This document shows, in pieces, positions 6,055 to 63,744 of a stretch of 64,000 nucleotides of DNA. The position numbers and the translations under genes were made by a program. Source of the DNA: a virus (lineage: Duplodnaviria > Heunggongvirae > Uroviricota > Caudoviricetes). The notes below the pieces were generated by a model. The model saw only the letters and a program-made list of their open reading frames with translations, did no database searches and was not told the DNA's origin. The stretch's first letter is position 1, and each line of letters starts with the position of its first letter. The DNA lies in the IMG/VR virus record IMGVR_UViG_3300013902_000001, positions 84,000 to 147,999 of that record, one strand, 5' to 3'.

Positions 6055-6059
6055 CTCTG

Positions 6060-10508: not shown

Positions 10509-10787
10509 CTACATCTTGCATCCACACCCCATTACAATATCTTTACCGGGGTATTTAACTAACTCTCCCGTCTTGATATTTATTCCCCTGCCACTATCGC
10601 ATCTATCAGTATCCTCATTATATAATGGGCATTCTCTACATATTTTCATTCGAGCTTCTGACAACTCGTCTTCTCGACCTAATGCCCAATTTGTATAGCC
10701 TTCGGCTATTTCCTTAACTTGATGAAAAGAGTTTATTCCAAACATATTAAATTTCAATAACGCATTTTTTTCCAGATAAAAGATCAT
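10509..10787 (-). CDS. Cys-rich zinc-ribbon protein
   Basis: CRECPLYNEDTDRCDSG...MGCGCKM. Confidence 0.35.
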   Translation of the reverse strand: MIFYLEKNALLKFNMFGINSFHQVKEIAEGYTNWALGREDELSEARMKICRECPLYNEDTDRCDSGRGINIKTGELVKYPGKDIVMGCGCKM

Positions 10788-10929
10788 TATACAATGATTT
10801 AATAATTGGATCTTTTGCGTGATCGTATTCTATTTGATAGCGTTTACGCTGATCCTCTGATATGCATTGTAGTATAACATATTTAGGAGTTCTTTTCTTC
10901 CGAAAAAGATTTTTAAGAAATTTAATCAT

Positions 10930-19700: not shown

Positions 19701-20229
19701 GGTTTTGGTCCCGACATTGTGAGCCCGGACTAAGTCATTACTGATCCAGATGCTATAGGTTTTCCTGAAGTACTTGTCCACACTTTAATAAGAGGCTTAG
19801 AAGTTCCAGCGAAAGGTGCTAATCCTACAGCCGCCATTAAAGCGTGTCCGAGAACTTGTAATCCAGTTCCAATGGATCTTCTATAATCTTTTTCTTTTAT
19901 GTATCCTTGTAATCTATTAATTTTTCTGCTCCAGCTGTCAGTTCTTCTTGTGTTAAGACACCTGGTAATGAATATTTAACAAAATCCTTAGCAAAGTTTC
20001 CAACTGGCTCTGGAATTGACTCTACGATAGTTTTTGTTCCAGGGTTTTGTTCTATTATTGGAATTTCTTCTGGCATAAATCTAAATAATTTGGTTTTACA
20101 AACTAAGTCAAATCCCACTTAGGAACCAGTTTTTGTCTAACAGTCTAACCCCAGGCAGTCCCCGGATTGTTAAACTATGTATTAAAGTTAGAATACTAAG
20201 ACTATTTAGAATAAACAGTATTATTATGT

Positions 20230-20693
20230 TTAGGATCGTATACTCCTAATAACATAGCAGCTCTACGTTGTTTACGGTCTTTTACTCCACCTTCTGCTGA
20301 GTCTATATCTAATTCCTTTATAATAGACTCTGCTTCTTTGAGAGTAAGTCTATTATCAGCATAAGCGTCTTGAAGAGCTTTAGTAAACTTGGGGCTTTTA
20401 GCAAAAGCACCTTGACCTCCTCGATAGAGTTGGTCTATAAGAGCATATTTAGTCTACTCAGGAAGAGAATCGTAATTTGGGAAGTACTGTCGAATATATT
20501 TTTCCTTTTTATTAATATAAGCCGGAATGAGTTTTACAGCTTCTTGCTCAGTAATGGTAGAATCTGCTTTTACTGGAGTTCCGTCTGGCATTGTGTCGGA
20601 ACCATATCCTATTGAATAATGGTCAACATCCCAGTAGGCTTTTGGCTTGAAGCCTTCATACTATTTTAATAAATCTATAAACCAATCTTGCAT
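20230..20693 (-). CDS. GH24 (T4 e-like) lysozyme, with in-frame TAGs
   Basis: The reverse complement reads MQDWFIDLLK(TAG)YEGFKPKAYWDVDHYSIGYGSDTMPDGT..., which resembles the GH24 lysozyme N-terminus (EG.r..aY.D..G..TiGyG). No ORF appears in the track because of TAGs. Confidence 0.5.
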
Positions 20694-20958
20694 ATACACT
20701 ATTTTTTGCAAAAATACTAAAAACTTTTAATAGAAAAAAGGAGAAAAGGTAAATGCTAAGATATGCGAATAAACTTAAGATAGAGATTATAAAAAAATTT
20801 ATACCAGGGAGGTCATTTAGAATACCCCCGGTATCTTAATATGAGAGTGGTGGGGGAGGGGAAGGTATCACCTTTCCGACCCCCGGAGTCCGCTTGGGCG
20901 GAAATCAAATTTGAAATCCGCTTCGCGAATTTAAATTTGAAAATTAAAATTTCTCACT

Positions 20959-26651: not shown

Positions 26652-26994
26652 GCTGCTGTGGCGAAATCGGAAGTACGCATCAGACTTATTATTGAGTGCT
26701 TTAAGAGAAATCTTAGAAGTAGAATTCCCCTAACAAACCGAAACCTCGTTTATGGCGACATAAACTTTGGCGAGGGCTCTCTAAATTGAGGTAATTTTTT
26801 GATCGAGAATATCTACCTCATAAATGGCGTAGAGGCCATACAGGGAATACCTATACTGATAAAGTGTTATCAGCATGGTAAAGAAATGGTCCAGACTACA
26901 AAATCTCTCTGAGATTGCTCGTATCAAAGCGAGTGTGGTTTCGAAAATCTGAGGGTTTGAAAAAACCGTGTGGGTTCAAGTCCCACCAGCAGTA
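26652..26994 (+). tRNA. tRNA-Leu(UAA) with a group I intron of about 256 nt (26688-26943) between U34 and A35
   Basis: Acceptor GCTGCTG/CAGCAGT. D-arm GCG-AAATCGGAAGTA-CGC (Leu type II-like). Anticodon stem TCAGA/TCTGA. Loop CTT|intron|AAAA: only this split has the exon ending in U and the intron ending in G. Long variable arm GGGTTTGAAAAAACCGT. T-arm GTGGG-TTCAAGT-CCCAC. Confidence 0.65.
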
Positions 26995-27367
26995 CAAAAG
27001 TTTTTTCATATATATTAAGGTATAAACTTATTGTAGGGGAAGTTTCTCGTTTTATAACCTATCCCTCTTTACGAATTGAAACCGACTAAAGTAAGGTTAT
27101 AAGTGGGTTTCAAAAACTTGACTTCCCGGGAGTCTTTACTGCTAAGTTATCCTAGATGGTTATAAGCAGATTTTTAACTGTTTCCGAGGCAAATAAAAGA
27201 TAGTATATAATATCTTTTATGGTTGGGGCGCGGCGAATAATAAGTTTTCCGGACCTTATTATTCGGATAGGAAACAGTTTTTGCCTATTAGATTAAAGGC
27301 AGATCGTTAGCTTTTCAAGCTAAAGAACTAGGATCGTTACCTAGATAGGCTACTAATTACAATTATT

Positions 27368-35865: not shown

Positions 35866-36900
35866 ATGAATGCAATAATTCAATCAGGAAACATTTTCTC
35901 ATTTGCAGATATAGATTCTGCGAATGAGAAACTTCCATTAGGAGTTTACACTGTAGCATTTTCCGATCTTAAGGGATTTTTCTTGCAAAAATCAAATCCC
36001 CTAACACTTCCAGAGAAAATCTATGGTGATATGTCTATAGTTCAACGAGCTATAGATGTTTATCAAAGAAAAGAAGGCAATTTTGGGTTACTTCTTTCTG
36101 GATTAAAAGGCGCTGGTAAAACTCTTACTATGCGTAAGTTAGCTATAGATTTGAATCAACCTGTAATTATTCTTAATGATGCTTTTGTTAAGTATCAAGT
36201 AGAATTAATCAAATTCCTTTCAGATCCTCGATTAGGTGATGTAACTATTCTCATAGATGAATTTGAAAAGATCTTCGAAAATGATGATGCAACTCCCCTC
36301 TCACTTCTAGATGGCTTATTTAATTGCCATAATTTTTATATATTAACCTGTAATAAGGCTTATGTTAATGAAAATCTCATTAATCGGCCAGGTCGAATTT
36401 ATTATCATAAAAATTATGAAGGGTTAGATGAGCCTATAATAGAAGAAGTAATTAATGATATGTTAATAAACAAATCTAATAAAGAAGAATTAATAATGGA
36501 ATTAGATTCTATTCCTAATCTATCTTTTGATATGCTAATTTCCATTATCAACGATCTTAATCAATTCGGAGATACACCTAAGAAAACAATTTCTTATTTC
36601 GGATTTGAAAAGGAAGGAATTCTATTTACAAGTTATCAGATTATGAATGGACATGCTATTCAACGTGATCAAAATATATCATTTACCCCAGAAGAAGATG
36701 AACTTTTATGGCTCGAGTACCGATATATTAGCGATGATGGGAAAGAAATTTCTGATACATGTCGAATAAAAATCGCTAACTTAGTTAAAATTGCTCCGAG
36801 AAGATATAAAGTTTCTACTACAGATGGTACTTTTAATAAACAAGTCGTAACATTTGAATTAGAAATTCAAAGAAAAAGAATTTATAATTATATTCTATAA
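35866..36900 (+). CDS. AAA+ ATPase
   Basis: Walker A LSGLKGAGKTLT; Walker B VTILIDEFEK. Confidence 0.55.
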   Translation: MNAIIQSGNIFSFADIDSANEKLPLGVYTVAFSDLKGFFLQKSNPLTLPEKIYGDMSIVQRAIDVYQRKEGNFGLLLSGLKGAGKTLTMRKLAIDLNQPVIILNDAFVKYQVELIKFLSDPRLGDVTILIDEFEKIFENDDATPLSLLDGLFNCHNFYILTCNKAYVNENLINRPGRIYYHKNYEGLDEPIIEEVINDMLINKSNKEELIMELDSIPNLSFDMLISIINDLNQFGDTPKKTISYFGFEKEGILFTSYQIMNGHAIQRDQNISFTPEEDELLWLEYRYISDDGKEISDTCRIKIANLVKIAPRRYKVSTTDGTFNKQVVTFELEIQRKRIYNYIL

Positions 36901-37219: not shown

Positions 37220-37479
37220 TTTTAGTTATTTATTTACTTTTAGGAATATTGTTTAGTGGAATCTGTCTAAATACTTATTTAGATGGATTTCCACTAAAAA
37301 ATATTATTCCTATAATGTTAATTATTATAGTATTTTGGCCATTAGTATTAGGATTTTACCTATTTCTATGGTTTACTAAATAGGCAATAGTTTAAGTAAA
37401 ACGCATAATGTGGGTTTGAATCCCGCTTGCCTTCTATGGAAGAATTAATCAAAATGTTATCCTATTGAAATAGCAATTT

Positions 37480-37803
37480 ATGGAAACGTCCCATCTCTTC
37501 AAGATAATCGAACTCTTAAAAAGTAATGATGAAGAATCTCGCAATCTAGGAATGAAGCTTTTAAAAGAACACAAAAATGAGTTTGGAAAGAAAGCTAAAT
37601 ATTATTATAATGGGAAAGTTATGCCTATTAGATCTTTTCCGTTTCGAAAAGTTTTATTAACTTTTTCAAATCCATATAATGAGGATCATGTTTCTGGAAG
37701 ATTTAAGAATTTTAATGTTTGGAATATCGATTTAAAAACTTTAGAAAATGCGATATATTATCAAGAACAAGTGGAGAAAAATGCTTCAGAGCGAAGATCC
37801 TGA
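37480..37803 (+). CDS. Paralog-family member A (HEAT-like N-terminal motif)
   Basis: FKIIELLKSNDEESRNLGMKLL. Confidence 0.4.
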   Translation: METSHLFKIIELLKSNDEESRNLGMKLLKEHKNEFGKKAKYYYNGKVMPIRSFPFRKVLLTFSNPYNEDHVSGRFKNFNVWNIDLKTLENAIYYQEQVEKNASERRS

Positions 37804-38122
37804 AGTTCAAAATTTAGCTTTACAAGCTATTAAATCTGATAAATGGATTAGATTTTGGATTAAGTTTATAGGAAATACTGTTTGTATAGAGTGTCCTGCT
37901 TTTAAAAATTGGATCTCAAAATCCTATATCATTAATAGGAATTTTATTGAAATTAAGGAAATGGGAGATATTTCATTAAATTGTTTGATAAATTTAAAAT
38001 ATCCGTCTATTAAAAAATTGCGATATTCTATTATATATAACTTTAAACATGGATATTATAGAAATGATTTCGTCTCTAGATTGAGAAGTAGTAATTCTAG
38101 GATTGAAGATGATTCAAGATGA
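37781..38122 (+). CDS. Paralog-family member B
   Basis: MLQSEDPEVQNLALQAIKSDKW, starting at the internal ATG 37781. Confidence 0.35.
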   Translation: MLQSEDPEVQNLALQAIKSDKWIRFWIKFIGNTVCIECPAFKNWISKSYIINRNFIEIKEMGDISLNCLINLKYPSIKKLRYSIIYNFKHGYYRNDFVSRLRSSNSRIEDDSR

Positions 38123-38305
38123 TTTTTTAAAATGGTTTCAAATTCATTTTTATAATTCATCATATTGTAGATTTACTTATAATGAAGTTATAGCCTTATT
38201 TAAAAATTTAAATACCTTAGAAATATATCAAATTATATTCAATTTATTTATCATACTTATATTACAGCAAGGTTAAGAAACCTTTTATTAATATGATTAA
38301 AGCTT

Positions 38306-38533
38306 ATGAAGATCAGCGAATTACTGGCTAACAAGGATATTGAAACGTTTTTATTAGGAGTTAGGGCTTTACCTGAAGATTTTTATCAATGGGCTAGAGA
38401 AGTTAAACAATATACAATTTGTCATACAGTTTCAATTTCTGTTAATATTTCCAGAATTACTGCTATTTTATATTTCGAAAAAGTTTGGTTTGAAGATTTA
38501 TCGGGAGTGAAGTTTTATTATGAACATATCTGA
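38306..38533 (+). CDS. Paralog-family member C
   Basis: MKISELLANKDIETFLLGVRAL. Confidence 0.45.
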   Translation: MKISELLANKDIETFLLGVRALPEDFYQWAREVKQYTICHTVSISVNISRITAILYFEKVWFEDLSGVKFYYEHI

Positions 38534-38804
38534 ATTACTATCTTCTAAAGATCCAGAAACTATTCTTTTAGGCATAAAATTAATACCATTTGTTAAATTT
38601 TATCGATATATTAAATCTAGTAAACCTATTGCCTATAAAGCAATTTTATTACTATTAAGACATAGAAATCATTTAGAATTCTTATATCAGCCTTTTAATG
38701 AATATTATTCAGTCAGAATAAATATGAATAATTTTATAGGATTTCCTATATCAGTTCCGTACTTAAATCAATTATATCAACAATTCGAAAATGAAAATAT
38801 CTGA
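38520..38804 (+). CDS. Paralog-family member D
   Basis: MNISELLSSKDPETILLGIKLI ... LYQQFENENI; its start overlaps the stop of C. Confidence 0.45.
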   Translation: MNISELLSSKDPETILLGIKLIPFVKFYRYIKSSKPIAYKAILLLLRHRNHLEFLYQPFNEYYSVRINMNNFIGFPISVPYLNQLYQQFENENI

Positions 38805-39078
38805 TTTACTTAATACCAAGGATTCTGAATCTATTTCATTAGGAATAAGATTACTTTCTCAAACTGATTTTTTAGAATGGATAATATTAAATAAACATTA
38901 TCACGTAAGTTATGATTTAAGTCGAATATTTTATGGAAATGATTGGATTTATAATATGAAGCAAGCTATGATTGTATTTGAGGATTCGTATCAATCCATA
39001 AGATCTATATATCATTTCTTTAGTGTAAAATATTTATCAGAATTATGTCAAAAATATGAAGATTTCAGAAATGCTTAG
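38791..39078 (+). CDS. Paralog-family member E
   Basis: MKISDLLNTKDSESISLGIRLL ... QKYEDFRNA. Confidence 0.45.
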   Translation: MKISDLLNTKDSESISLGIRLLSQTDFLEWIILNKHYHVSYDLSRIFYGNDWIYNMKQAMIVFEDSYQSIRSIYHFFSVKYLSELCQKYEDFRNA

Positions 39079-39409
39079 TTCTTCAGATATAGAAACTGTG
39101 ATATTAGGATTATCGTTAATAGATAAATCCTTTTATGATTGGTTGCCTCAGAATTTATTTAAGATGGGTATAAAATTAAATTTGGAATATGTAAGTACAA
39201 TATTCTTTGACGAACAAGATACAATTGATTCGATTACTAAAATTTGTAATTCCAATTCAGTATATTTTTCGCATCCAATTCCTAAATTGTTATGGTGTAC
39301 TATGGGCTATTTATGTATTGATTCTGAAAATCAATTATATAAAATTAAGCAATCTGATTTAGTTACGTTATATGAACAATTTGAAAATTCTAGAAATTCT
39401 AAATTCTAG
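39056..39409 (+). CDS. Paralog-family member F
   Basis: MKISEMLSSSDIETVILGLSLI ... LYEQFENSRN. Confidence 0.45.
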   Translation: MKISEMLSSSDIETVILGLSLIDKSFYDWLPQNLFKMGIKLNLEYVSTIFFDEQDTIDSITKICNSNSVYFSHPIPKLLWCTMGYLCIDSENQLYKIKQSDLVTLYEQFENSRNSKF

Positions 39410-39662
39410 AGATTTGGAAAGTTTTTTACTGGGATTAAAACTATTGCCTCAAGATAAATTTATAGCATGGGCTAATGATTACGGATTTGATCATAGTAAA
39501 CACTTAACACATTCTATATATAAGTGTCTAAAACATCACATAGAATTCATATTAATAGACGAAAAACCTGTAATACTGGCAATGAGTCCTGGACAAACTT
39601 TTATTCAGCATCAATCTGAATTTGTAAACAATATAAAACAATTTTTCAATGAAATTTCTTGA
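39372..39662 (+). CDS. Paralog-family member G
   Basis: LKILEILNSRDLESFLLGLKLL. Confidence 0.4.
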   Translation: MNNLKILEILNSRDLESFLLGLKLLPQDKFIAWANDYGFDHSKHLTHSIYKCLKHHIEFILIDEKPVILAMSPGQTFIQHQSEFVNNIKQFFNEIS

Positions 39663-41361
39663 TTATTATTTAAAAGCTTGTAATGTTTTAGAATCTTGTC
39701 AAAATCTAGAACAGTGTGCTACCGCTAGAAATTATCTTTTACTTTTAAGAAAGAAATTTCCAGTTGAAGAGTCTGTGGTTAAGTTGTTGGATCTGCTTTC
39801 TATAAAACAAAATGTTGTAAATTCACCTAATTTAATAGAAGAATAATGGGTTGTTTTCATAAAATTTTTGCTCGGCAAGAGCGAAAGAAAAAACTAATTG
39901 CAGAAGTTAATCGTGGAGAAGATTGGGACTGGGGATATATTTATTCACTTCTTGCAGTTAAGTTGGAGAATATTCGAGATTATGCTCAAAATGATTCTGT
40001 TTGCGACCCAAAAGACTGGGGAATTGAATGGCTAACTAGAGCTATTAATCTATGTCGGCATTTATCTGGAAAGTCAAAGTATCCGAGTAAAATTAATATT
40101 AATAATGATTTTAGATTTCTTAGTAAATCAGAGCTTCAATTTTACCACAATCCAAAAAATAGATTAGATTATGTCTATTATAGGGAAATTTATGATTATA
40201 AAGCTAAAAATCTTTTATTCGAAATTCTTAAGAATAAAATAGAGTTATGGTGGGATTAGATAATAATTTTTAGATACTAATTAAAATGAAGAGACGTGAA
40301 ATTTACTTTAAACGAGGTTATCCAACAATTTGACCCTGATAATATAGAAAAAAATTTATATTTATCAGCCTGGATAAGAAATTATTCTAGAGTTTGGATA
40401 AATGATTGGATTCCAGTTTATGGATTCAGAGGGGCTAGTTCTCAGCTTCAAACATTCCTAACGGCAACTAGTAATGAAGAAAAATGTGTTCGAGAAATCG
40501 CTATAAAATCTTTACAAGAATGGTATGGAGATAATTAAGGAACATTTTAAATCGATTCATTCGTTATTAAATACTTTAAACAGTCGTCCTAATAATTCAG
40601 TAATGGCAATCGAAGATTCTTCTGAATCAGGGAGTTATGATTTTACTGGAAGTCATAGTTATGATGAAGCTGTTCAGTTATTTAAAGAGGGATATGTAGA
40701 AATTCTTCCTAAAATAATGTCTAAAATGAAGAAGATGGAGAAAGATCTATATTCTGAATTTCAATTTACAAAAAAGATACGTCCACAAAATTCGATAGAA
40801 GGAGTTGTTCCTAATGTTCCAAATGCTATATTAGGTCTTCCACAATCTATGATTGATATGAAAAGATTTCCACAAAAGCAGAAAACTTTAAATATTATCT
40901 ATGAAATGGGAGCTAATTGTGGAACTGATAAAGAGTTGTTTATAAATGCAGGAGTAGTTTTATTAACGGCAATTAAAATCTTAGAAACTAAGAGAATTTC
41001 TGTTAAATTAACACTCGGATTTATGGCTGTAAAAGCTGATGAACAAGGGGGTTTTCCAACTGTTGATTTAAAAGATTATGGACAAAGATTAGATTTGCAG
41101 AAGTTATGTTTTCCATTAGCTCATCCTTCTATGTTTAGAAGAATCGGGTTTAAATGGCTAGAAACTAATCCTGATATTACAGATAAAGACTTTCGATTTG
41201 GTTATGGTAGAAGTCCTGCTGATCAAACGGAAGAATGGAAAGATTTTGTCAATCAGTTAAATTTACTAAAAAATGCTCGTGTATTACGAGCTCAAGATAT
41301 TGAAGAAATGAGATTCGATGTTAGTAAATTAATTGACTATTTAAATATAAATAATGCCTAG
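39649..41361 (+). CDS. Four hypothetical genes (39649..39846, 39846..40259, 40296..40538, 40525..41361)
   Basis: ORF track. No motif recognised. Confidence 0.3.
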
Positions 41362-43407
41362 AATTAAATCGGGAGATTCCGTTTCTCAAATTCCAGAATT
41401 GACTAGTTCTTTGGATCAATTGAATATTGTATATAGTAAGATGCTATCTTCCTTAATAGGAATGTTTGATCCAAAAGATATATTTGATAAGCTTTCACCA
41501 GAAGTAGAAAAGATGTTTATGGAACATTTTGGAGGAATTCCCCAAGTTCATAAATTGCTTTTACCAGATGGAGAAGAACATCCTTTTACAGGAGTAACTC
41601 ACGAAATGTTTGATACAGTGCTTAATTTAGTCAATCTAGATATTCCAGTTTATCTTTGTGGACCTGCTGGGGTTGGTAAAAATTATCTGGTTAAACAAGT
41701 TGCGGAAGCTTTAGGAAAAGAGTTCTATTTTAGTAATGCTGTTACTCAAGAATATACATTAGTCGGTCAAATTAATTAATATTTTTCAAAATTGAAGGTT
41801 ACGAAGAAAAAAATTACAGACGACCTTCGTAAACAAATGAACTAGTTGTTTAATGAAGGTAAATCCATTACTGAAATTGCAACAATTTTAGATGTAGATA
41901 GACATACTGTTGCTAGACATTTAGTAGATAAAAGTAAGTATAATGAAAATTGTTTTTCAACTATTACTGCTGAATCTGCATATTGGCTAGGATTTATGTA
42001 CGCAGACGGATATGTCGGATCTACTCGAAATACTGTTGGAATTTCATTAATGAAATCAGATTTCAATCATTTACAAAAGTTTTCTAAATTTATATAGTAT
42101 AAAGGAAATTGTGTAAGAATTTTTCATGGGAAGTCATCTTTTGGAGATCATTATTATTGTAGAGTTAATCTTCGTAATAAGAAAATGCACGATGATTTAG
42201 TATCCCTAGGTTGTGTTTCTCTTAAAACTCATATATTACAATTTCCTAAATTTATGTATAAATCTGAATATTTAAAAGATTTTGTGCGAGGATTTTTTGA
42301 TGGAGATGGATGTCTAAGTTTAGACAAACGTGGAAACAGAGTCGAAGCTTCATTTATATGTGCAGTTGAGTAGTTTATAATTGATTTACAAGCTGCTATT
42401 AAAATTTTAGGTTTTGAATCTACAAAATCTAAAAGTAATAAATGTCATCGAATCCGCGTAAAAAATGCTTTTAAGTTTTTAGATTTCATATATAAAGATG
42501 CTGCTGTATATTTAGATAGAAAATTTGAAAAGTATTATTCTCTCAAGCAGAGGAGAGAAGGCCGTCTTATGGAGTAATCTATAAGATTATTACAGGACAA
42601 TATCGGTGAAGCCGTTTAGGTAATACCGAGATAATCTAACAAATTGCGAAAGGTTGTTAGACATCGTAACGCATAGAGAGTGAATAAATATAATCTCTCC
42701 ACGAGTGCCCTGCGCCCTTAGGGGTGAAAATATATGCTGAGCTAGACTAGAATTAACTAGTCGTATTCCATTAGGATATGAGAGAAATCTCTAGAAGTTT
42801 TGGATAAAAAACCAAAACGATAACAAAACTGTTTCGCGACGCGAATGGTATATTCCATGAAACTCAGTTTTATGATGCTTTTACTAAAGGAGGAATTTTC
42901 TTTTTGGATGAGATAGATGCTTCTATTCCTGAGGTTTTAATTATCTTAAATGCTGCTATTGCTAATAGATATTTTAACTTTCCATGTGGTAGAGTTTATG
43001 CTCATCCGGATTTTCGTGTAGTTGCTGCTGGTAATACATTAGGAACTGGTGCAGATTCTCAATATACAGGCCGCTATTGTTTGGATAGAGCAAGTCTAGA
43101 TCGATTTGCTATAGTTCATATAGACTATTCGCCTAAAATTGATTTGGAAAGTGCTGGAGGAGATTCTGAATTATCTAAATTTGCTCAGACTTTTCGGCAA
43201 GTTTGTGCAGATACTGGTATTCAGTGTTTATGCTCTTACAGAAGTATTTCTCGTATTCATTCTATGGAATCTGTAAATTTAGCCCCATTAAAGGAAATTA
43301 TGAAAATGGCTTTAGTAAAAGATTTGGATATTGATGATATTAATATTCTTCATTCTGAATTACAAAAGCGAATTCCTTCTAATAAATATGTAGATGCTTT
43401 AAAATGA
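41354..43407 (+). CDS. AAA_5 (MoxR/dynein-related) ATPase gene split by a group I intron. Exon 1 is 41354-about 41779; exon 2 is about 42846-43407
   Basis: Exon 1 carries Walker A: VYLCGPAGVGKNYLV. Exon 2 reads ...GIFHETQFYDAFTKGGIFFLDEIDASIPEVLIILNAAIANR...VVAAGNT (Walker B and sensor). The intervening 1.1 kb holds a LAGLIDADG ORF and a P-like element aaattgcgaaaggttgttag (42641-42660). Confidence 0.6.
41846..42577 (+). mobile_element. Intron-encoded LAGLIDADG homing endonuclease, intact only if two in-frame TAGs (42095, 42371) are read through
   Basis: Motif 1 LGFMYADGYVG; motif 2 GFFDGDGCLSL. 41846..42097, 42098..42373 and 42374..42577 are one continuous frame broken only by TAG. Confidence 0.6.
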
Positions 43408-43946
43408 AAAGAAAAAATGCAGAAGAATTCGTAAAAATTATTCAATTTTTAATGAGTCCTGATGAAGAAAATTGGATTTTAGGATTGAGCCTTTTGTCAG
43501 AAACTTCTTTTTACAAAAATTTAAATAAGCATACTGTCTATCATGTTCCATGTATATATTCTAAATTAGGAAATTTAAATGCATCATGGGATTATAGATG
43601 TGGTCCAACAGATATTAAATTAAAAACTTATGTTCAGAATATGTTAGAAACTCCGCCAAAAAAAATTTGGAATAATTTAGCTCCTCCTTCTGTAGGAATT
43701 GTAGGAACTATTTTATTTAAATTATTATGGGATGATCAAAGTAAAAGAACTCGGAACTCTTCTATTATATGGGAAATGTTTTATCAGAGTGACTTTACTA
43801 AGTCACCTCATGATAAATCAAAACATGTGCGGAATTTTGGTCGTAGAAAATTTAGAAAATTTACCTATGATCGAGAATTGAATTATTATGAACAGGTGTT
43901 AAATTCTCCAGTATTCAATTATTTCGATAATAAATCTCGAAATTAA
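43404..43946 (+). CDS. Paralog-family member H
   Basis: FVKIIQFLMSPDEENWILGLSLL. Confidence 0.35.
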   Translation: MKRKNAEEFVKIIQFLMSPDEENWILGLSLLSETSFYKNLNKHTVYHVPCIYSKLGNLNASWDYRCGPTDIKLKTYVQNMLETPPKKIWNNLAPPSVGIVGTILFKLLWDDQSKRTRNSSIIWEMFYQSDFTKSPHDKSKHVRNFGRRKFRKFTYDRELNYYEQVLNSPVFNYFDNKSRN

Positions 43947-48276: not shown

Positions 48277-48867
48277 ATGAAACAGAAGAAAGAAATTATT
48301 AATGAAGCTCTTCTAAATTGTTTGGAAGATCTTTATAAATATGCAGTTCCGACTACTTCCTATGCAGCACTATTAGAAGCACACAAACAAGGCCAACCTT
48401 ATGATAAAGAATATTGGGCTCATCATTATTTGCCTGAAAAGTTATTTCGAGAGATAGTGGATCATTATAAGCACGCTTATAGTCTAGAACCCTATTTTAA
48501 GGAATACACTGATGTTCTAAAAGACTATCTTTTGGATGGAGGAACAACCGAAATCTATGTAAAAGACGACTCTCTAGTAGGAGGTCGAAGGGAATATACT
48601 AAAACTCCTAAACTCAAAGATGTAATTGGTGAGGAAGCAGCTGATAAAGTTGCAGAACTTATTAAGAAATGTCAAGAGTTTTATAGGGTTGATTGGTCTC
48701 GAACTGAAGGTTTTGAGTTTGAAATATTTAATTGTGGTCCATGCTGTAATGCAGAACCTGTAAAGAAGTATTGGGAATCTCAAGGTGTAGAAGTTGATTG
48801 TGATGACGATAAAATTATAAAAAACTTCTATAAAGAAGAATATGGCGATGATGAGGAGGATAACTGA
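48277..48867 (+). CDS. Hypothetical acidic protein
   Basis: ORF track, 196 aa. Confidence 0.3.
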   Translation: MKQKKEIINEALLNCLEDLYKYAVPTTSYAALLEAHKQGQPYDKEYWAHHYLPEKLFREIVDHYKHAYSLEPYFKEYTDVLKDYLLDGGTTEIYVKDDSLVGGRREYTKTPKLKDVIGEEAADKVAELIKKCQEFYRVDWSRTEGFEFEIFNCGPCCNAEPVKKYWESQGVEVDCDDDKIIKNFYKEEYGDDEEDN

Positions 48868-49802
48868 TGAAGACGACCCTGACTTCGAGTGAGAAAATTT
48901 CTCACGAGTATTGTTGCACTATCGTTAAAATAGGTGAAATTAAGCCTATAGAAGGTGCTGATAAGATAGTTCAAACTGAGGTTGAAGGAAGAACTATTAT
49001 TATAGGTAAAGACGAAGTGAAAGAAGGAGATATAATGTTTTATGTCTCTAATGAGTGTGAGTTAAATAAAGATTTTCTTTTTGTAAACAATCTTTTTGAT
49101 GATCCCACTCTTAATAAAGATCCTGAAAAGAAAGGATATATTAACAAACGAGGTCGTGTTCGGATGATCAAACTTCGTGGAGTATATTCTATGGGGTTTT
49201 TGTTTACAGTGGAAGCAATGAAAAATTATTTTCCTGCTTTTAATGTAGAAGAGGAAAATCTTTCTGAACGAATTGGTGAAGATTTCGATACCGTAGATGG
49301 AACATTATTTGTAAAAGCTTATGTTCCTCCTATGCCAGAACCTAATATTCGACTGACTCGAGAACAGCATCGAGCTAAGAAATTAGCTTTTGATCGAATG
49401 ATTCCAGGGCAATTTGCACTGCATTATGACACAAAACAGCTCCAGAGGGAAATATCAAGATTAAATCCTGATGATGTTGTTTGTGCCAGCACTAAGGTTC
49501 ACGGATGTGTGGATGCAGAAACATTAATTAATACCAATTTAGGTCAGTTTACTATTAAGCATATAGTATATAATAAACTTGATTGTTTAATAGAAGCTTA
49601 TGATACTTATACTCAGCAAAAAGTTTTTGTTCCAATCGATCAATATTATCATATTTCTAATGATGGTGATTGGTATGAATTAGAACTGGAAAACGGAATA
49701 AAATTAACTATAACTGGTAATAATCCGGTGTTTTTACCGGATCGTAATTGCTATCGTAAAGTTTGGGATCTTAAACCTGGAGATAGTGTATTATTTTCAT
49801 AA
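48867..49802 (+). CDS. RNA ligase N-terminal half (tRNA-binding OB-like domain plus nucleotidyltransferase motif I, KVHG), fused to an N-terminal split-intein fragment (49506-49799)
   Basis: EIKPIEGADKIVQTEVEGRTIIIG is like a Trbp111/CsaA tRNA-binding domain. ...ASTKVHG matches motif I (KxHG). Then CVDAETLINTNLGQFTIKHIV (intein block A), ending 98 aa later at TAA. Confidence 0.55.
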   Translation: MKTTLTSSEKISHEYCCTIVKIGEIKPIEGADKIVQTEVEGRTIIIGKDEVKEGDIMFYVSNECELNKDFLFVNNLFDDPTLNKDPEKKGYINKRGRVRMIKLRGVYSMGFLFTVEAMKNYFPAFNVEEENLSERIGEDFDTVDGTLFVKAYVPPMPEPNIRLTREQHRAKKLAFDRMIPGQFALHYDTKQLQREISRLNPDDVVCASTKVHGCVDAETLINTNLGQFTIKHIVYNKLDCLIEAYDTYTQQKVFVPIDQYYHISNDGDWYELELENGIKLTITGNNPVFLPDRNCYRKVWDLKPGDSVLFS

Positions 49803-50590: not shown

Positions 50591-50932
50591 TTGGTTGAAA
50601 ATAATATTGATTTTGAAGTAGAATATTGTTTAACTAGTTCAGATGGGCATGCTAGATACTTTGATTTTAAAGTTGATAATTATTTGATTGAATTAAACGG
50701 TGATTTTTGGCACGCTAATCCTAAAATTTATGCTGAAAACGATATTATTAATTTACCTGGTTCTGACGGGGTTTTAGCTAAATCTTTGTGGGAAAAAGAT
50801 GCTCAAAAACTACAATTAGCTCAACAAAATGGTTTTACGGTCATTACTTTATGGGAGTGTGATCTTAATGATAGTAAAAAATTAGAAAAAATTAAACGAA
50901 TTATGAAATTATATGCAAATAATAAAAATTAA
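50591..50932 (+). mobile_element. Vsr/DUF559-like (PD-(D/E)XK) endonuclease; a candidate free-standing homing endonuclease
   Basis: ELNGDFWHANPKIY...NGFTVITLWECDL. Confidence 0.5.
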
Positions 50933-51794
50933 AAAAATAACTCCAGTTTCAATTCGTGATCGATACGATTTAACTGTAAGCTCCACACATAATTTTTTTG
51001 CTAACGGTATACTGATTCATAATACTAGCGCCATTTTTGGTAACATTTTGACACTTCAACCGCGATGGGGTGGGATTTATTCTAAAATCTTCAACTATCT
51101 TCCGAAATTCCTTCAATTTACTAAGAAAGGTTATGATGTAATTTATTCTTCCAGAACAGTTATTAAGAATAAAACTATTAATCCAAAAGTTAATGGTGGT
51201 TATTATGATACTGATGTTTGGGGAGAGTATTATGAGCTTCTAAAAGATGTGATTCCTGCTGGTATTACTATTTATGGGGAAATATTCGGGTATCTATCTG
51301 ATTCAACTCGTATGATTCAAAAAGGTTATGACTATGGGTGTAATCCTGGAGAAAATAAACTAATGATTTATCGAGTTACCAAGACTGAAGAGGATGGGAG
51401 TAAGAAAGAGTATAATATTAACGAAGTAATGACTTTTACTTTGAAAATTAAAGATTCTTTACAAGAAATTGGAAAAGATCCTAATAAACTATTCTTACTA
51501 CCATTACTTTACCATGGAACTTTGAAAGATTTGTATCCAGAAATTGATCCTGCTAATCATTGGCATGAAAACGTATTAGAAGCATTGAAAAATGATACTG
51601 AGCATTTTGGTATGGAGAAGAAAGAACCATTATGTCGTAATAAAGTGCCTAGAGAAGGCATTTGTCTACGTATTGATGATGATCCTATAGCAGAATGTTT
51701 TAAATTGAAGGCCCTAAGCTATCTTCAGAAAGAGGGAGCTGAAATAGATTCCGGAACTTATGAAGATATTGAGACACAAGAACGATATGAGTAA
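50913..51794 (+). CDS. C-terminal split-intein fragment (50913-51023) fused to the RNA ligase C-terminal half
   Basis: MQIIKIKKITPVSIRDRYDLTVSSTHNFFANGILIHN|TSAIF (intein blocks F/G, then the +1 Thr). Downstream ligase-like motifs: YGEIFGY, EGICLRID, KLKA. Confidence 0.55.
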   Translation: MQIIKIKKITPVSIRDRYDLTVSSTHNFFANGILIHNTSAIFGNILTLQPRWGGIYSKIFNYLPKFLQFTKKGYDVIYSSRTVIKNKTINPKVNGGYYDTDVWGEYYELLKDVIPAGITIYGEIFGYLSDSTRMIQKGYDYGCNPGENKLMIYRVTKTEEDGSKKEYNINEVMTFTLKIKDSLQEIGKDPNKLFLLPLLYHGTLKDLYPEIDPANHWHENVLEALKNDTEHFGMEKKEPLCRNKVPREGICLRIDDDPIAECFKLKALSYLQKEGAEIDSGTYEDIETQERYE

Positions 51795-52649: not shown

Positions 52650-53198
52650 AACAGAAATTGCTTCTATGGAGGAATTTGCTGAAAATCACAAAAAATGTTA
52701 TGAAAAGAATAATTCTAATAAGAAACCTCTCGGATTTACTATTACTACTAAATCTACTGGAATTGGGGCTCAAATTAAAATTACTTGTGATTGCTGCGGA
52801 GAAACCTCTGATGTTAGCGATTACAGCACATGGTGATTATGAAAACGTTATTATGGCTCGATGATTGGAGAGATCCTTTTGAAAATCCAGAATGGCTTAA
52901 CTTTTCTCCTATAGGTAAAGATGTGGAAGTTCACTGGGTTAAGTCCTATGATGAATTTTCAGACTGGATTGTTAAAAATGGATTGCCAACTGCTATTTGT
53001 TTCGATCACGATTTAGGCGATATTGATGATAAAACAGAGTTTACTGGATATGACTGTGCTAAATGGTTAGTAAGATACTGTATTAACTATCACAAACCAT
53101 TACCTATTTGGAAAGTAATATCTTCTAATCCAGTTGGCAAAGAAAAAATTGAAAGTTGGCTAAGTAATTTTCAAAAATATCAACGAGAAAATGAATAA
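52633..53198 (+). CDS. Two small hypothetical genes (52633..52836, 52830..53198)
   Basis: ORF track. Confidence 0.3.
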
Positions 53199-54117
53199 AA
53201 TTATTGTTTTGAGTGGTCCCCCTGCTTCAGGGAAAACTGTTTTTGCTAGAGACTATATTCAAACTCATAAAGATTGTGTAATCGTTAATAGAGACGATTT
53301 CCGATCTTCCAGAGGAGATTATTTGGTTCCTTCTCAGGAAGACTATATCTCGGATATAGAAGAAGCTGCTGTTCGTTCTGCACTTAAAAGAGGACTTACA
53401 CCTATAATAGATGCTACTAATCTAAATCCTAGGACAATTTCTAAATGGAATACCATTGCTGACGAGTTCGGAGTGGAAGTAGAAACAAAATCGTTTTATA
53501 TACCATTTAAAGACGCTGTAGAGCGAGATCGTCTTAGAGGTGAGGCAGGTGGTAGATCTGTCGGAGAAAAGGTCTTAAAAGACTTTTATTTGCGTTATTT
53601 CGAAGAAGAGTTTCGGAAAGAGGTTTATACCGACCATACTTTTATTAGAAATGACGATAATCTCGATTTGCCTCCTTGTATAGTAGTTGATTTAGATGGA
53701 ACGGTAGCATTACATCAAGGTAGAAGTCCTTTTGAATGGGATAAAATAGACACCGATAAATGTGATCCTCGAATGAAGCAAATAATAGAAAGATATATAC
53801 TCGATGGAGTAAATGTTATCTTTCTTACTGGTAGAAACAAAACTGCTGTAGCTTACGCTAAAACGTTTGATTGGTTAGCAAAATATTTCCCATATTATAA
53901 AACTGATATGAATACACTCAAGAAGTTTTATAAATGGAATCTAATCATGCGAGCTGAAAAGGATTATCGACCAGCACCTATTAGTAAAAAAGAACTTTTT
54001 GAACAATATGTGGATGGTAAATATAATGTTTTAGCAGTTTTTGAAGACTCTAACAGATGTGTGGAAATGTGGAGAAGTTTAGGATTATTAACTTTACAAC
54101 CTGCAGATAATAAATGA
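53191..54117 (+). CDS. pnk: Polynucleotide kinase-phosphatase (T4 PseT-like)
   Basis: N-terminal P-loop kinase VLSGPPASGKTVFA; C-terminal HAD phosphatase IVVDLDGT. Confidence 0.7.
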   Translation: MNKIIVLSGPPASGKTVFARDYIQTHKDCVIVNRDDFRSSRGDYLVPSQEDYISDIEEAAVRSALKRGLTPIIDATNLNPRTISKWNTIADEFGVEVETKSFYIPFKDAVERDRLRGEAGGRSVGEKVLKDFYLRYFEEEFRKEVYTDHTFIRNDDNLDLPPCIVVDLDGTVALHQGRSPFEWDKIDTDKCDPRMKQIIERYILDGVNVIFLTGRNKTAVAYAKTFDWLAKYFPYYKTDMNTLKKFYKWNLIMRAEKDYRPAPISKKELFEQYVDGKYNVLAVFEDSNRCVEMWRSLGLLTLQPADNK

Positions 54118-56327: not shown

Positions 56328-58242
56328 GGTTTATGATATAGAAACTCTTTCAAATCTTTTTACTTATACTGGATATAATTGCAATACCAAAACATGGAGT
56401 CAATTCGTTATATCTAATTGGAGAAATGATTTGCAAGATTTAATTCTACATCTAAAAAAACCTAACATAATTCAAGTTGGATTCAATAATGAAAATTTTG
56501 ATTATCCTGTAATACATCACATTTTAAATCATCCAGAATATACATATAAATCTGGACAAGAGGTTGCTCAAGCAATCTATGAAAAATCTCAAGAAGTTAT
56601 TAATAACGAATTTAATACTATTGCCGATAAAAATAAGTTTATTCCTCAAATAGATTTGTTTAAGATTTGGCATTATGACAATAAAGCTCGATTAACTTCA
56701 TTAAAAGATTTAGAGATTTGTATGAGAATGGAGTGTGTTGAAGAAATGCCTATTCATCATACTACGTGGTGCAAAAAAGGGGATGAAGATTGTGTTCTAG
56801 AATATAATAAAAACGATGTTCAAGCTACTTATCAATTTTTCTTAACTACCTTAGGAAGAACTGATTATTCTATTTATAAGGGAAAAGATAAAATGCAATT
56901 AAGAACCGATTTGCAAAAAAAATTTGGAATTAATTGTCTTAATCTTCCCGATGTTAGAATGGGAGAACAATTAATGTTAAATTTGTATTCTCGAGCAGTT
57001 AATAAGAATCCATTTGATGTAAAAAAACTAAGAACAATTCGATCTGAAATTAAGTTAATTGATTGTATTCCGTTTTGGTGTGATATTAAATCAAATTCTT
57101 TTAATAAGTTTTTAGATTTGATTAAATCCACTACTATTCCAGTCCCAATTCCAAAAGATTCATTTTCTTTTTCGGTAATAGATCATGAATATAAATGGGA
57201 TTTTGGATTAGGAGGTAGTCACGGATGTATTCGTCCTGGAGTATATAATTCTGATGACAATCATGTAATTCTAGATTTGGATGTATCTTCTCTATATCCA
57301 AGTATTGCTAGATCTTTACAAATATATCCTCATCATTTAGGCCCTGAGTTTATGCAATTGTATGAACAATTTATTGATAAACGAATTCAAGAAAAGCATA
57401 AACCGAAGGCAGAACGAGACAATGTTCTAATTGAAGGATATAAACTTATCTTAAACGGAACTTATGGTAAATCAAATGAAGAAACTTCATTTATGTATGA
57501 TCCATTATATACTCTTAAAACAACGATTGCTGGTCAAATTTTTATTTGTATGTGGTCTGAAAGGATGATTCAAGCTTGTCCTGATGTAAAGTTTTTACAA
57601 ACTAATACAGATGGACAAACAATATTAATTCCTAGAGATAAGTTAGAAGCAATTAGGGAAGTCAACAATCAATTAACAAAAGAAACTACTCTTGTAATAG
57701 AAGAAGCAATTTACAAATCAATGATTATTAGAGATGTGAATAATTATATGGCAATTTATGACGATTCTACTGATGAATCTGAACATTTAAAACTCAAAGG
57801 AGATTTTGAAATTGATAAAGAATATCATAAAGATCCATCTATGAGAATTGTTCCTATTGCTGTAAAAGATTATTTTGTTCATAATATTCCGATAGAAGAA
57901 ACTATTAAAAATCATACAGATATTTATGATTTTTGTATGAGATTAAAGCTTAATTCTTCTACTAAAGGGATATTCAAACACATGTCTAATGGCGAAATTA
58001 TTGATGATAAATTATCTAGAACTACTAGATATTATATTGCAAGAGGCTCTCAGTCAGGATCATTGTATAAAATATTTGAAGGAGACAAAATGCAGGCAGT
58101 AAATAAAGGTTTTCAAGCAATTATTTTTAATAAATATGTTAAGAAACCTATTAGCGACTATAATATAAACTATTCTTTTTATATTCAAGAAGCTTATAAA
58201 TTGAAAAATGCAGTTGACTCCGGACAATTAAGTTTATTCTAA
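56314..58242 (+). CDS. Family B DNA polymerase
   Basis: Exo I YDIET. Motif A DLDVSSLYPSIA. Motif B KLILNGTYGK. Motif C QTNTDGQ. Confidence 0.65.
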   Translation: MNQFEVYDIETLSNLFTYTGYNCNTKTWSQFVISNWRNDLQDLILHLKKPNIIQVGFNNENFDYPVIHHILNHPEYTYKSGQEVAQAIYEKSQEVINNEFNTIADKNKFIPQIDLFKIWHYDNKARLTSLKDLEICMRMECVEEMPIHHTTWCKKGDEDCVLEYNKNDVQATYQFFLTTLGRTDYSIYKGKDKMQLRTDLQKKFGINCLNLPDVRMGEQLMLNLYSRAVNKNPFDVKKLRTIRSEIKLIDCIPFWCDIKSNSFNKFLDLIKSTTIPVPIPKDSFSFSVIDHEYKWDFGLGGSHGCIRPGVYNSDDNHVILDLDVSSLYPSIARSLQIYPHHLGPEFMQLYEQFIDKRIQEKHKPKAERDNVLIEGYKLILNGTYGKSNEETSFMYDPLYTLKTTIAGQIFICMWSERMIQACPDVKFLQTNTDGQTILIPRDKLEAIREVNNQLTKETTLVIEEAIYKSMIIRDVNNYMAIYDDSTDESEHLKLKGDFEIDKEYHKDPSMRIVPIAVKDYFVHNIPIEETIKNHTDIYDFCMRLKLNSSTKGIFKHMSNGEIIDDKLSRTTRYYIARGSQSGSLYKIFEGDKMQAVNKGFQAIIFNKYVKKPISDYNINYSFYIQEAYKLKNAVDSGQLSLF

Positions 58243-59696
58243 TGCAAACAGTATCATCCGCTGTTAAAAAAATTATGTTATCTGAGCCTTTTTATGGGCT
58301 CTTTTTATGTGGTATAAATAAGAGGTTTACTGAAAAGATTCCTACAGCTGCTGTTGGATTGGAAGGTATTAATTATTGCTTAATGATTAATAAAGACTTC
58401 TGGTATGGATTAAAGGATGACTATAGGTATGCTATTCTTAAGCACGAATTACTACATTTATGTTTCTTCCATCTTTCTGATTTATATAATAAAGCTTCTG
58501 ATAATCACATGATATTAAATATCGCTATGGATTTGGAAGTGGAATCTTATATAGATGAGAAATATTGGGTTAAAAACGAGAAAGGGGAATTTACTGGTGC
58601 TGCTGATCGATTCTTCGAACTATTTCCATCATTACCGAAGCAAGCTGGAACTAAGTATTATTTAGAGTATCTAAAGCACTTAGAGAAAAAAGCTTTTGAA
58701 GAAGTGGATAAAGGAAATCCACAAACTCCACAATCTAGTAACGGACAACAAGATCAAGGATCGTCCTCTCAACAAGGCAATCCACAGTCTGGTAGTGGAA
58801 GTTCCAATGGCTCGAAATCTTCTCAACAGTCCGGAAAGAGTTCTTCAGGCTCAAAATCTTCTTCTGGAAGATCCAATAGAAGTCGAGGAGAAAATCCTGA
58901 GTATTCTCAAGGAGATCAACCTAATCCTTCTAAAATAGACAAGGAATGGAATGATCTTAGTGATTCCGAAAAGCAACAAGTTCGGGATCAATTTATCTAT
59001 GCTAGAACTCTACATTCTACATGGGATGATCTTAAGAATCTTCCTGAAGAGGAACAAAAGCTTATAAAAGAACAGTTAAAATATCAGTTAAAGCAAGTGG
59101 CTCAATCTATTAAAGATAAAGGAAATATTCCTGGAGAATTATCAGTTTTAATAGATGAATTACTAAATCCCAGACCACCTGTATTTAACTGGAAAGCTTA
59201 TTTTCGCAGATTATTAGGAACAAGTTTCGATATTAATCTTAAGAAAACCAGAAGGAAAGAATCGTTAAGATTTGAAGATGCTTTTGGTTTGAAGAAGAAA
59301 AAGAAACACAAGATCCTGGTAGCAATCGATACTTCAGGATCAGTTTCTAATGCTGATTATGTGGATTTTTTCAATGAAATTAATCATATTTACAAAGCTG
59401 GAGCAGATATTCATGTTCTTGAATGTGATACGCAAATAGCAGCAGAATACGATTTTAAAGGAAAAATCCCATCCCAACGCTGTGGAAATGGAGGAACTAG
59501 CTTCCAAGCTCCTGTGCAGTATTTTAATGACCATAGAAACGATTATAGTGTCTGTGTGTATTTAACCGACGGATATGGTGATCAAGAATTATGTCACCCT
59601 CTCGGTAAAATGATTTGGATTATCACAAGTGACGGTAATCAAGGATCAAATTATCCTGGAATAAAAGTTTGTATTCCAGAAACAATTAAAAAATAA
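58242..59696 (+). CDS. VWA-domain protein with an N-terminal HExxH putative metallopeptidase domain (DUF2201-like); partner of a MoxR ATPase
   Basis: ILKHELLHLCFFH (HExxH). An S/G/Q-rich linker. MIDAS ILVAIDTSGSVS. Confidence 0.55.
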   Translation: MQTVSSAVKKIMLSEPFYGLFLCGINKRFTEKIPTAAVGLEGINYCLMINKDFWYGLKDDYRYAILKHELLHLCFFHLSDLYNKASDNHMILNIAMDLEVESYIDEKYWVKNEKGEFTGAADRFFELFPSLPKQAGTKYYLEYLKHLEKKAFEEVDKGNPQTPQSSNGQQDQGSSSQQGNPQSGSGSSNGSKSSQQSGKSSSGSKSSSGRSNRSRGENPEYSQGDQPNPSKIDKEWNDLSDSEKQQVRDQFIYARTLHSTWDDLKNLPEEEQKLIKEQLKYQLKQVAQSIKDKGNIPGELSVLIDELLNPRPPVFNWKAYFRRLLGTSFDINLKKTRRKESLRFEDAFGLKKKKKHKILVAIDTSGSVSNADYVDFFNEINHIYKAGADIHVLECDTQIAAEYDFKGKIPSQRCGNGGTSFQAPVQYFNDHRNDYSVCVYLTDGYGDQELCHPLGKMIWIITSDGNQGSNYPGIKVCIPETIKK

Positions 59697-59711
59697 TTAA
59701 ATTTTACAAAG

Positions 59712-63415: not shown

Positions 63416-63744
63416 GAACTGGTAACGCTAATTCAAATTTTACAGTTACTGATAATACTTTATCAGGATCCGGAATATGGTCTCAAATCCATTACTCAGA
63501 CATTGATTTTATAGCTCCTTACATTTCAGGTGATAGAAAATGGGCATTGGATGAATTAGAAGATCCTAGTTTACCATTAGTAGAAGACTGGAATAAGGTT
63601 AAAAATTTAATTGATTCAGAAGACGATGAATCCGTAAATCTAGGTTTTGAGTTATTAAATGGACACAGATACCCTAGAGGTATTGTAAATAAATTAATTA
63701 TAATTAAAGGTTTAAATAAATTATTCAAAATTAAAAAATTCTAA
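63412..63744 (+). CDS. Paralog-family member I
   Basis: WALDELEDPSLPLVEDWNKV...DESVNLGFELL. Confidence 0.3.
   Translation: MRTGNANSNFTVTDNTLSGSGIWSQIHYSDIDFIAPYISGDRKWALDELEDPSLPLVEDWNKVKNLIDSEDDESVNLGFELLNGHRYPRGIVNKLIIIKGLNKLFKIKKF

Follow-up and report, generated by a model that had tools for sequence, protein, structure and literature searches.

A chain of overlapping small genes with a common N-terminal module forms a multigene family in a stop-codon-recoded phage

Viruses keep their host-specific weapons in tandem families of fast-evolving accessory genes. Poxvirus K3L and the multigene families (MGFs) of African swine fever virus belong to these viral multigene families, or gene accordions. 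To our knowledge, very few such families have been described in phages, and the large stop-codon-recoded phages of the human gut have so far yielded none. A phage precedent for the gene accordion is the amplification of tifA in T4 (PMC9391042). T-even phages also possess internal proteins (IPI, IPII and IPIII, from a polymorphic locus), which bear a capsid targeting sequence and act against host defence (PMC3012670). Here we analyse an array of small paralogous genes on the plus strand of a 64,000-nucleotide stretch of an uncultured Caudoviricetes virus of the gut (positions 84,000 to 147,999 of IMG/VR record IMGVR_UViG_3300013902_000001). This whole stretch, never the array alone, is what we call the window, and its numbering is used at full length. 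A first reading of the bare sequence, hereafter the original prediction, had counted at least seven members in tandem. That count is right: there are eight units and a 10-codon vestige, and six of the units look intact (Table 1).

That these genes form a family is established at the protein level. A profile of 25 residues, built from the nine N-termini listed in the original prediction, was searched against the six-frame translation of the window. It matches exactly ten places: seven tandem genes (with starts at 37480, 37748, 38306, 38520, 38791, 39056 and 39372), the genes at 43404 and 63412 which had indeed been proposed as further members, and a copy at 38049, overlooked at first reading because of its in-frame TGA. 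A weak motif-like stretch in 60917-61990 failed the profile and was not counted. After one iteration, the second-round profile found 80 matches (E<=0.01) in the window and five related contigs; in the window and three syntenic sister contigs all matches lie on the coding strand. Reversed sequences, used as a control, gave a best match of E=1.5. The conserved residues are encoded, as read from the sequence, by synonymous codons that differ between copies, and direct repeats in the array are short. Together these three features point to protein-level homology, not to recent repeats or to the low complexity of AT-rich DNA, which the similarity in the alignment far exceeds. Every gene that had been listed is present on the plus strand at its position, and the result is a real, previously unnamed phage multigene family. 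Its products, of about 75-133 amino acids (aa), are predicted to be small cytoplasmic proteins, encoded in one same-strand chain of genes that each initiate independently. The opposite strand holds nothing of 40 codons or more under the array, bar one 41-codon open reading frame (ORF) at its very start.

Full-length alignment resolves each protein into a module of the form MKISELLxSxDxExxxLGxxLLxxxxFxxW, of which 25-30 aa are common to the family, then a variable middle, then a C-terminal helix ending in YE(N/D)F. The unit opens with a conserved two-helix hairpin (h-K-I-x-E-L-L-x-S-x-D-x-E-x-x-x-L-G-x-x-L-L, followed by F..W), resembling one armadillo/HEAT repeat, is continued by a predicted helix and three-stranded sheet of variable sequence, and is closed by the helix that carries Y-E-(N/D)-F. 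The AlphaFold2 model of the 95-aa member 6 is a compact alpha/beta domain (predicted local distance difference test, pLDDT, 87.6; predicted template modelling score, pTM, 0.80), with helices at residues 3-7, 12-23, 27-33 and 37-48, three strands and a final helix at 79-94. In this model the N-terminal hairpin lies inside the compact domain, at a pLDDT of 93-95, and a single unit is thus predicted to fold on its own.

The motif had been called HEAT-like. As a resemblance of the hairpin this stands. Membership of the HEAT/ARM family fails, because there is one unit per chain, no solenoid and no model match: none of the ten members matched HEAT, HEAT_2, HEAT_PBS or Arm in Pfam at E<=1, nor did any NCBIfam model, and alpha-solenoid stacking is contradicted by the single module of each window protein and by the mixed alpha/beta model. 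The best sequence matches of the module profile in the PDB are engineered repeat proteins, 4rv1 (E=1e-11) and 4hxt (E=2.6e-8), which we take to be consensus armadillo designs. They share the LLxSxDxE stretch (consensus LLxSxDxE(V)...A..AL, as in ...KLLTSTDSEVQ...). These scores are sums over 6-10 repeats, the individual repeats having E-values of 18-590, each insignificant. A search of the BFVD structures returned nothing with E below 0.1, leaving a compact domain without clear counterpart among either the solved structures of the PDB or the predicted viral structures of BFVD.

No curated family in Pfam, PHROGs, NCBIfam or PADLOC matched at E<=0.001, and Rfam found nothing in the array. A HMMER search over 1.84 billion representative proteins gave 33 matches, and they are nearly always these small phage proteins again; the large eukaryote-like ones (P0024, P0025, P0035 and P0044) are chance matches inflated by repeats. 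A word-indexed protein search with a family alignment of 47 sequences returned 4 proteins. The N-terminus of the 180-aa dispersed member, used as a 49-aa probe, found no relative in GTDB, a collection of genomes from 185,579 species; across IMG/VR, JGI metagenomes and GTDB this invariant segment retrieved the same phage alone, or nothing. Against GenBank phages, megablast of the region had no match and tblastn of one member gave noise only; judged by one neighbouring gene, csAssE-Sib is the closest phage in GenBank; it lacks synteny, and the 41 kb of it that were inspected contain no array. A paper on the recoded gut phage phAss-1 deals with a different phage group. The family is therefore specific to phages: curated families do not match it, and the public collections that were searched yielded no close relative.

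Table 1. Family members in the window, with the array as a whole on the first line (lengths in amino acids, aa; overlaps in nucleotides, nt).
Feature	Position	Strand	Description	Basis or comparison
Tandem array	37437-39662	+	Eight units and a vestige; six look intact
Vestige of an extra member	37437-37469	+	10 codons (MEELIKMLSY, then stop); remnant of the intact gene 9703-10029 of L003 (MEELIKMLLSPDPEVVNSGILLL...)	Read and aligned
Member 1	37480-37803	+	107 aa; motif at residues 7-31 (FKIIELLKSNDEESRNLGMKLLKEH)	Orthologues 62-71% identical; dN/dS 0.25-0.56
Member 2	37748-38122	+	124 aa; motif MLQSEDPEVQNLALQAIK; CxxC present; 56-nt overlap with member 1
Member 3	38049-38276	+	Probable pseudogene; in-frame TGA at 38082-38084 (codon 12); C-terminus decayed too
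Member 4	38306-38533	+	75 aa; deletion fusion	Orthologue comparison with L003 and L008
Member 5	38520-38804	+	94 aa (MNISELLSSKDPETILLGIKLIPF ... LYQQFENENI); 14-nt overlap on each side	Orthologues P0003, P0007
Member 6	38791-39078	+	95 aa; TAG stop; the member modelled with AlphaFold2
Member 7	39056-39409	+	117 aa; TAG stop	Public counterpart P0023
Member 8	39372-39662	+	96 aa (MNNLKILEILNSRDLESFLLGLKLLPQD...); final unit	Motif profile, ORF list
Dispersed member	43404-43946	+	180 aa	Motif profile, ORF list
Dispersed gene	63412-63744	+	110 aa; module internal, residues 61-85 (window 63592-63666)

The way in which these genes are joined is the second feature of the family. From the first junction to the last, the overlaps in the window measure 56, 74, 14, 14, 23, 38 and 14 nt, and the downstream gene is always in the +1 frame. 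Each ATG had been placed about 14 nt inside the previous gene, in another frame: the change of frame is general, the distance applies to part of the junctions. Overlaps were taken from the arrays of four related phages, which provide 44 overlapping junctions. The next gene is in the +1 frame at 43 of them; it begins 14-104 nt before the upstream stop, with a mode of 14 nt (15 cases). Its ATG is kept at all 44 and is embedded in (T/A)ATGAA at 30. The upstream frame reads TAT-GAA-AAT-TTC-AGA, giving Y-E-N-F-R, and one base later the same nucleotides read ATG-AAA-ATT-TCA-GA., giving M-K-I-S-(E/D). Because the new ATG sits at +1 inside TATGAA, the C-terminal YENF and the N-terminal MKIS are dual-coded, while the upstream stop arises inside Ser-Glu or Leu-Ser codons of the following gene. 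The endings of the members are thus the +2-frame shadow of the MK(I/F)(S/L) start that comes next. The common ending LY(Q/E)QFEN that had been noticed is literal in two members only (38520 and 39056); others have KYEDFRNA, FYYEHI or KQFFNEIS. The last unit follows the same rule, its stop falling 14 nt inside a gene foreign to the family (39649-39846, start MKFLD).

The plus strand has no terminator-like site within the array, and promoter-like sites of the sigma-70 type are no commoner there than in shuffled sequences. Translational coupling of the units is a reasonable inference from the overlaps, and translation of each gene probably relies on ribosomes that pass through its start or terminate just downstream of it. 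The array arose when a unit whose final codons already included the start of the next was duplicated in tandem; with ATG-AA contained in TATGAA, each successive gene therefore steps by +1 and the overlap of 14-104 nt is read twice. Repeated long out-of-frame overlaps of this kind make the C-terminal helix of one protein and the N-terminal helix of the next from the same bases. They offer a clean case of dual-coding constraint on protein evolution, and of translation starting inside a translated region.

So regular a frame step, together with a motif that resembles the unit of a repeat protein, could also be expected of a single ancestral repeat protein, either broken by frameshifts, as had been suggested, or fused by programmed +1 frameshifting at the junctions. 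We reject the broken protein, and this explanation as a whole is close to refuted. The ATG has been retained at every junction in four diverged phages, the overlaps vary in length and share no slippery sequence, and each unit has an orthologue of its own and is under purifying selection in its own frame. Furthermore, one unit is predicted to fold alone, and a distant array, described below, consists of separate genes with ordinary junctions of 1-4 nt.

Relatives of the locus are few. They are contigs of up to 172 kb from human-gut metagenomes, located by public protein searches, which found orthologues of single members in those few contigs only. Three of them are syntenic with the window and carry colinear arrays of 13, 17 and 19 units, against 8 in the window, so that related phages differ in array size, between 8 and 19 units. 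The flanks are common to all: a 344-aa ATPase and a 105-aa gene upstream; a 65-aa gene, a gene of 137-144 aa, DUF7192 and an AAA_5 ATPase downstream. Every member in the window has a colinear orthologue far closer to it than any paralogue, and the duplications are therefore older than these phages. Identity between orthologues is 35-81% in the family and 84-99% for most flanking genes, the exceptions being a short ORF, orf80 (62-70%), and PcfJ (35% against one relative). The ratio of nonsynonymous to synonymous substitution rates (dN/dS, Nei-Gojobori) is 0.20-0.59 in the family and 0.01-0.24 for its neighbours. A rapidly diversifying family had been anticipated, and what we see is a paralogous family that evolves faster than most of its surroundings; gene-wide, selection is purifying but relaxed, not positive. 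In none of the eight orthologue groups are the first 32-40 aa less conserved than what follows them, and in every comparison except one they are the better conserved part. These comparisons show that the paralogues are old and that the N-terminal module has been held constant while the rest of the protein diverged.

Gene loss is the other side of this history. The vestige at the head of the array is intact in the sister contig L003. The motif copy of member 3 (38049-38117) is interrupted by TGA where sister phages encode Arg, and the same TGA recurs in a further 11 contigs fetched for this phage, some of which come from the same sample (nine contigs that cover the array and two further copies of contigs already counted). 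Member 4 is composite: from 38306 to about 38507 it matches the orthologue of the units at 11944 in L003 and 8090 in L008, and from about 38506 the final codons of another unit (13000-13329 in L003, 9709-10014 in L008). The deletion behind this fusion, of 1.1-1.7 kb, took away 4-5 members. The comparison shows the array of the window to be a reduced version of the ancestral set, about half of which was lost through this deletion, a nonsense codon and truncation, and it shows the members to be individually dispensable.

One might go further and take the array largely for selfish or neutral DNA in decay, left over from an old burst of duplication and by now without a function. Two of the eight units are damaged here, about half of the ancestral set has gone, and in sister phages gaps of about 200-230 nt between members coincide with copies truncated by stop codons. 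We find this quite improbable: the dN/dS of all intact members is well below 1, open frames have been maintained in four lineages in DNA of 26% G+C, the AlphaFold model is confident, and the N-terminal module is conserved across different lineages of phages. Were the family a neutral relic only, its value would be confined to annotation.

The module also occurs outside this array. The first 4 nt of the gene for the 180-aa dispersed member overlap the end of the CobS-like AAA_5 ATPase gene. Among the orthologues of this member the 43 N-terminal residues are almost invariant and the remainder is 48-59% identical; its model shows the same helical hairpin, beta region and helix, with a basic C-terminal extension. 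(The AAA_5 gene itself, 41354-43407, is split into 41354-41779 and 42904-43407 by a 1.1-kb insert that encodes a LAGLIDADG-type endonuclease, a single ORF of 246 aa only if TAG is read as Gln. In sister phages the gene is uninterrupted, at 329 aa, and Rfam recognised no intron family in the insert of the window.) Three proteins, P0038, P0041 and P0042, have two copies of the module. Unrelated phage contig L010 (Logan SRR9179559_103874) has an array of its own at 3511-8075, with 15 tandem genes of 92-109 aa that start M..K(I/V)..ML.S.D.EM..LG and continue with a different, beta-rich remainder ending in EK(V/I)YL. Its junctions are ordinary overlaps of 1-4 nt. It lies between ABC permease-like and ABC ATPase genes, and its last gene shares 4 nt with the ATPase gene; genes for NAMPT and a PRPP transferase follow downstream. 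An hhalign comparison of the two families gave a probability of 94.9%, over the 34 N-terminal columns only, and a protein search with the family of L010 retrieved that contig's own genes only. In a further contig, L011 (Logan SRR22868769_511789), four module genes occupy 3031-5181; one of them ends in a membrane tail and another has the module twice. Their neighbours are a ClpS homologue on one side and, on the other, a 402-aa ATPase that is homologous to the product of 59712-60920 in the window, with a 14-nt overlap; this insertion separates the DUF2201 (VWA) gene from the ATPase gene, two genes that adjoin in the window (58242-60920). With the hhalign link limited to it, and with doubled or internal copies in some proteins, the N-terminal module looks like a separable unit. 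Phages of at least three lineages thus carry this short conserved module attached to different C-terminal domains.

The main rival to the explanation we prefer is that the family might be a library of adaptors, in which the hairpin docks diverse C-terminal recognition domains on one hub of the phage and delivers substrates for remodelling or degradation. The ATPases of the phage that come into question are at 35866-36900, 41354-43407 and 59712-60920, and the VWA partners at 40525-41361 and 58242-59696. The hub could be one of two MoxR/CobS-type AAA+ plus VWA pairs, the 344-aa ATPase or the phage ClpP (45589-46167), although we hold such a hub, like the library itself, to be unlikely. It is true that the module is the most conserved part of every orthologue group and is almost invariant in the 180-aa member, that it is joined across phages to unrelated C-terminal parts (including a membrane tail and two-copy proteins), that module genes abut genes for P-loop ATPases in three contexts (43404 with AAA_5, L011 and L010), and that the phage encodes ClpP. 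Adjacency is weak evidence, however, because phage genes are packed and overlapping everywhere. The conserved Ser-x-Asp-x-Glu capping box and the buried Leu, Gly, Phe and Trp are expected of any purely structural helix-turn-helix, and AlphaFold places the hairpin within the compact domain. In its boldest form, which we consider a long shot, the hairpin would be a universal plug, docking 8-19 recognition domains on a single phage machine (a MoxR/CobS-type AAA+ plus VWA pair, or ClpP). If this were true, it would allow the modular capture of many host proteins, a counterpart of the F-box and ankyrin-PRANC adaptors of eukaryotic viruses, and the chain of +1 overlaps would fix how much of each member is made relative to the others.

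The genomic context informs us about when the array might be expressed. This phage is TAG-recoded. On the minus strand, the late genes (window 1-20726) make long ORFs (1172, 735, 482 and 415 aa, and others) only if TAG is a sense codon; this block, fragmented in the standard code, has about 13 TAG per 1000 codons. It includes what we take, by eye from the translations and not from a family search, to be a GroEL-like chaperonin (8822-10282) and a lysozyme (20055-20726). No suppressor tRNA is present in the window, where the sole tRNA is a tRNA-Glu (27282-27353). On the plus strand, TAG is almost always terminal, with a back-up stop a few codons later. The two members that had been noted to end in TAG, 6 and 7, therefore probably stop there under the standard code. 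An active suppressor would probably lengthen them, member 6 to 111 aa and member 7 to 133 aa: with TAG read as Gln the former ends at 39126, as in public gene calls (P0017), and the latter at 39457, its orthologues having a Tyr codon at the TAG position and being about 20 codons longer. Public gene calling also shortens member 2, to 113 aa, by starting it from the ATG at 37781 (P0001). The surroundings of the array code for ATPases, ClpP, RNase H, ThyX, polynucleotide kinase-phosphatase (PNKP) and an RNA-ligase-like protein, a replication and metabolism block far from the recoded structural genes of the other strand. Because of this location, and of stops that mostly follow the standard code, the members are probably made before the late genes or alongside them.

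Several other elements, mostly related to RNA, occur in the window. PNKP (53191-54117) and the RNA-ligase-like protein with an OB fold (48867-49802), both on the plus strand, are parts of a T4-type system of tRNA repair. An intein-like segment is present within 50913-51794. Just upstream of the array, at 37383-37433 on the plus strand and at the same position in L003, L004 and L008, is a conserved tRNA-like mini-element. Its acceptor-like stem has 6 bp (GGCAAG/CUUGCC), its T-arm (GUGGG-UUUGAAU-CCCGC) has a loop that looks canonical, and it includes a small D-like hairpin but no anticodon arm. Its pairing is preserved through sequence changes in the relatives, and neither ARAGORN nor Rfam called it; it could be a signal for RNA processing or the remnant of a tRNA. 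Elsewhere, a weak match to the LOOT RNA (26848-26990, plus strand; 29.5 bits, below the gathering score, E=0.0055) has a T-arm-like GUGGGUUCAAGUCCCAC after it, some 300 nt upstream of the tRNA-Glu gene. In the sister contig L003, ARAGORN called a tmRNA at 7685-8102, a locus different from that of the LOOT-like match.

A common N-terminus on small polymorphic proteins brings to mind packaged proteins. The shared segment would then be a capsid-targeting leader, and the family a polymorphic set of counter-defence proteins ejected with the genome. The formal likeness to the T-even sets is strong, one member in a sister phage contains in-frame TAG, the mark of late genes here, and the M-K-I-S-E start includes I-x-E, which presumably resembles the site of the T4 prohead protease and is taken as a lead only. 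Still, a leader should be strictly N-terminal. The module is internal in 63412-63744 and doubled in the two-copy proteins; its 25-30 aa are predicted to belong to the fold, unlike a leader, and the array belongs to the strand where TAG is terminal, in the replication and metabolism block, away from the recoded structural genes. We therefore regard packaging as very improbable.

What we propose instead is a dispensable, phage-only multigene family of small binding proteins that probably serve host takeover or counter-defence. The original prediction had named decoys, anti-defence proteins and modular specificity subunits as candidate functions. Its parts deserve to be judged separately. The description of architecture and evolution is near certain. 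The functional class, accessory proteins that interact with the host, has been deduced from the pattern of evolution and the neighbourhood alone, and it falls somewhat short of an even chance; the statement as a whole we place at about evens. On a common scaffold, the divergent variable parts would presumably recognise different targets, and the N-terminal module could be the nucleus of the fold or a shared handle for one partner. A number of observations weigh against this proposal. Gene-wide dN/dS is below 1 throughout the family, short of a demonstration of diversifying selection. Nine further fetched contigs of this phage species span the array, and all have it in the same organisation; it is therefore no rapidly breathing accordion. 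There are no long DNA repeats within the array, the longest direct repeats having 14-27 nt at 71-94% identity. No known family of anti-defence, defence or takeover proteins was matched in the general libraries used (none better than E=0.04 in PHROGs; none in PADLOC or Pfam), and a family of DNA mimics is ruled out by charge, with isoelectric points from 4.7 to 9.8. Finally, the member at 10650-10979 of the sister contig L004 has two in-frame TAG in an otherwise open frame of 108 codons, the second aligned with a Gln of the L003 orthologue; for this copy at least, translation seems to fall under the late recoded regime, a hint of late and not early expression. Arrays of 8, 13, 17 and 19 units, with dated losses, are natural material for tests against the defences of Bacteroidota-type hosts.

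How, then, does the family compare with the systems from which we started? With armadillo and HEAT proteins it appears to have in common, in its N-terminal module, a helix, an S-x-(D/N)-x-E turn, a second helix and buried Leu positions; it differs in having one module per chain and, in the model, no solenoid. T-even internal proteins, too, are small and highly diverse phage proteins with only N-terminal sequence in common (PMC3012670). The module of the present family, by contrast, is predicted to be folded, is at times internal or doubled, and belongs to genes outside the recoded late block; we found no relationship in sequence or fold between the two sets. The array of L010 likewise consists of tandem genes, fifteen in number, with the same N-terminal module, and differs by an unlike remainder, ordinary junctions and surroundings of ABC genes. 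Like the viral multigene families and accordions, the family displays tandem duplication, copy number that differs among relatives, loss by deletion and evolution faster than that of core genes. In contrast to them, its paralogues are old and diverged, each with orthologues, long DNA repeats are missing and the array is stable within the species: the sign of a recent accordion, be it near-identical DNA repeats or a difference in copy number among nine contigs of the species, did not appear. The likeness thus concerns the way in which copies are gained and lost, and not the tempo. We know of no description of long +1-frame overlap chaining for tifA, K3L or the MGFs. The chained overlaps appear to be an unusual architecture.

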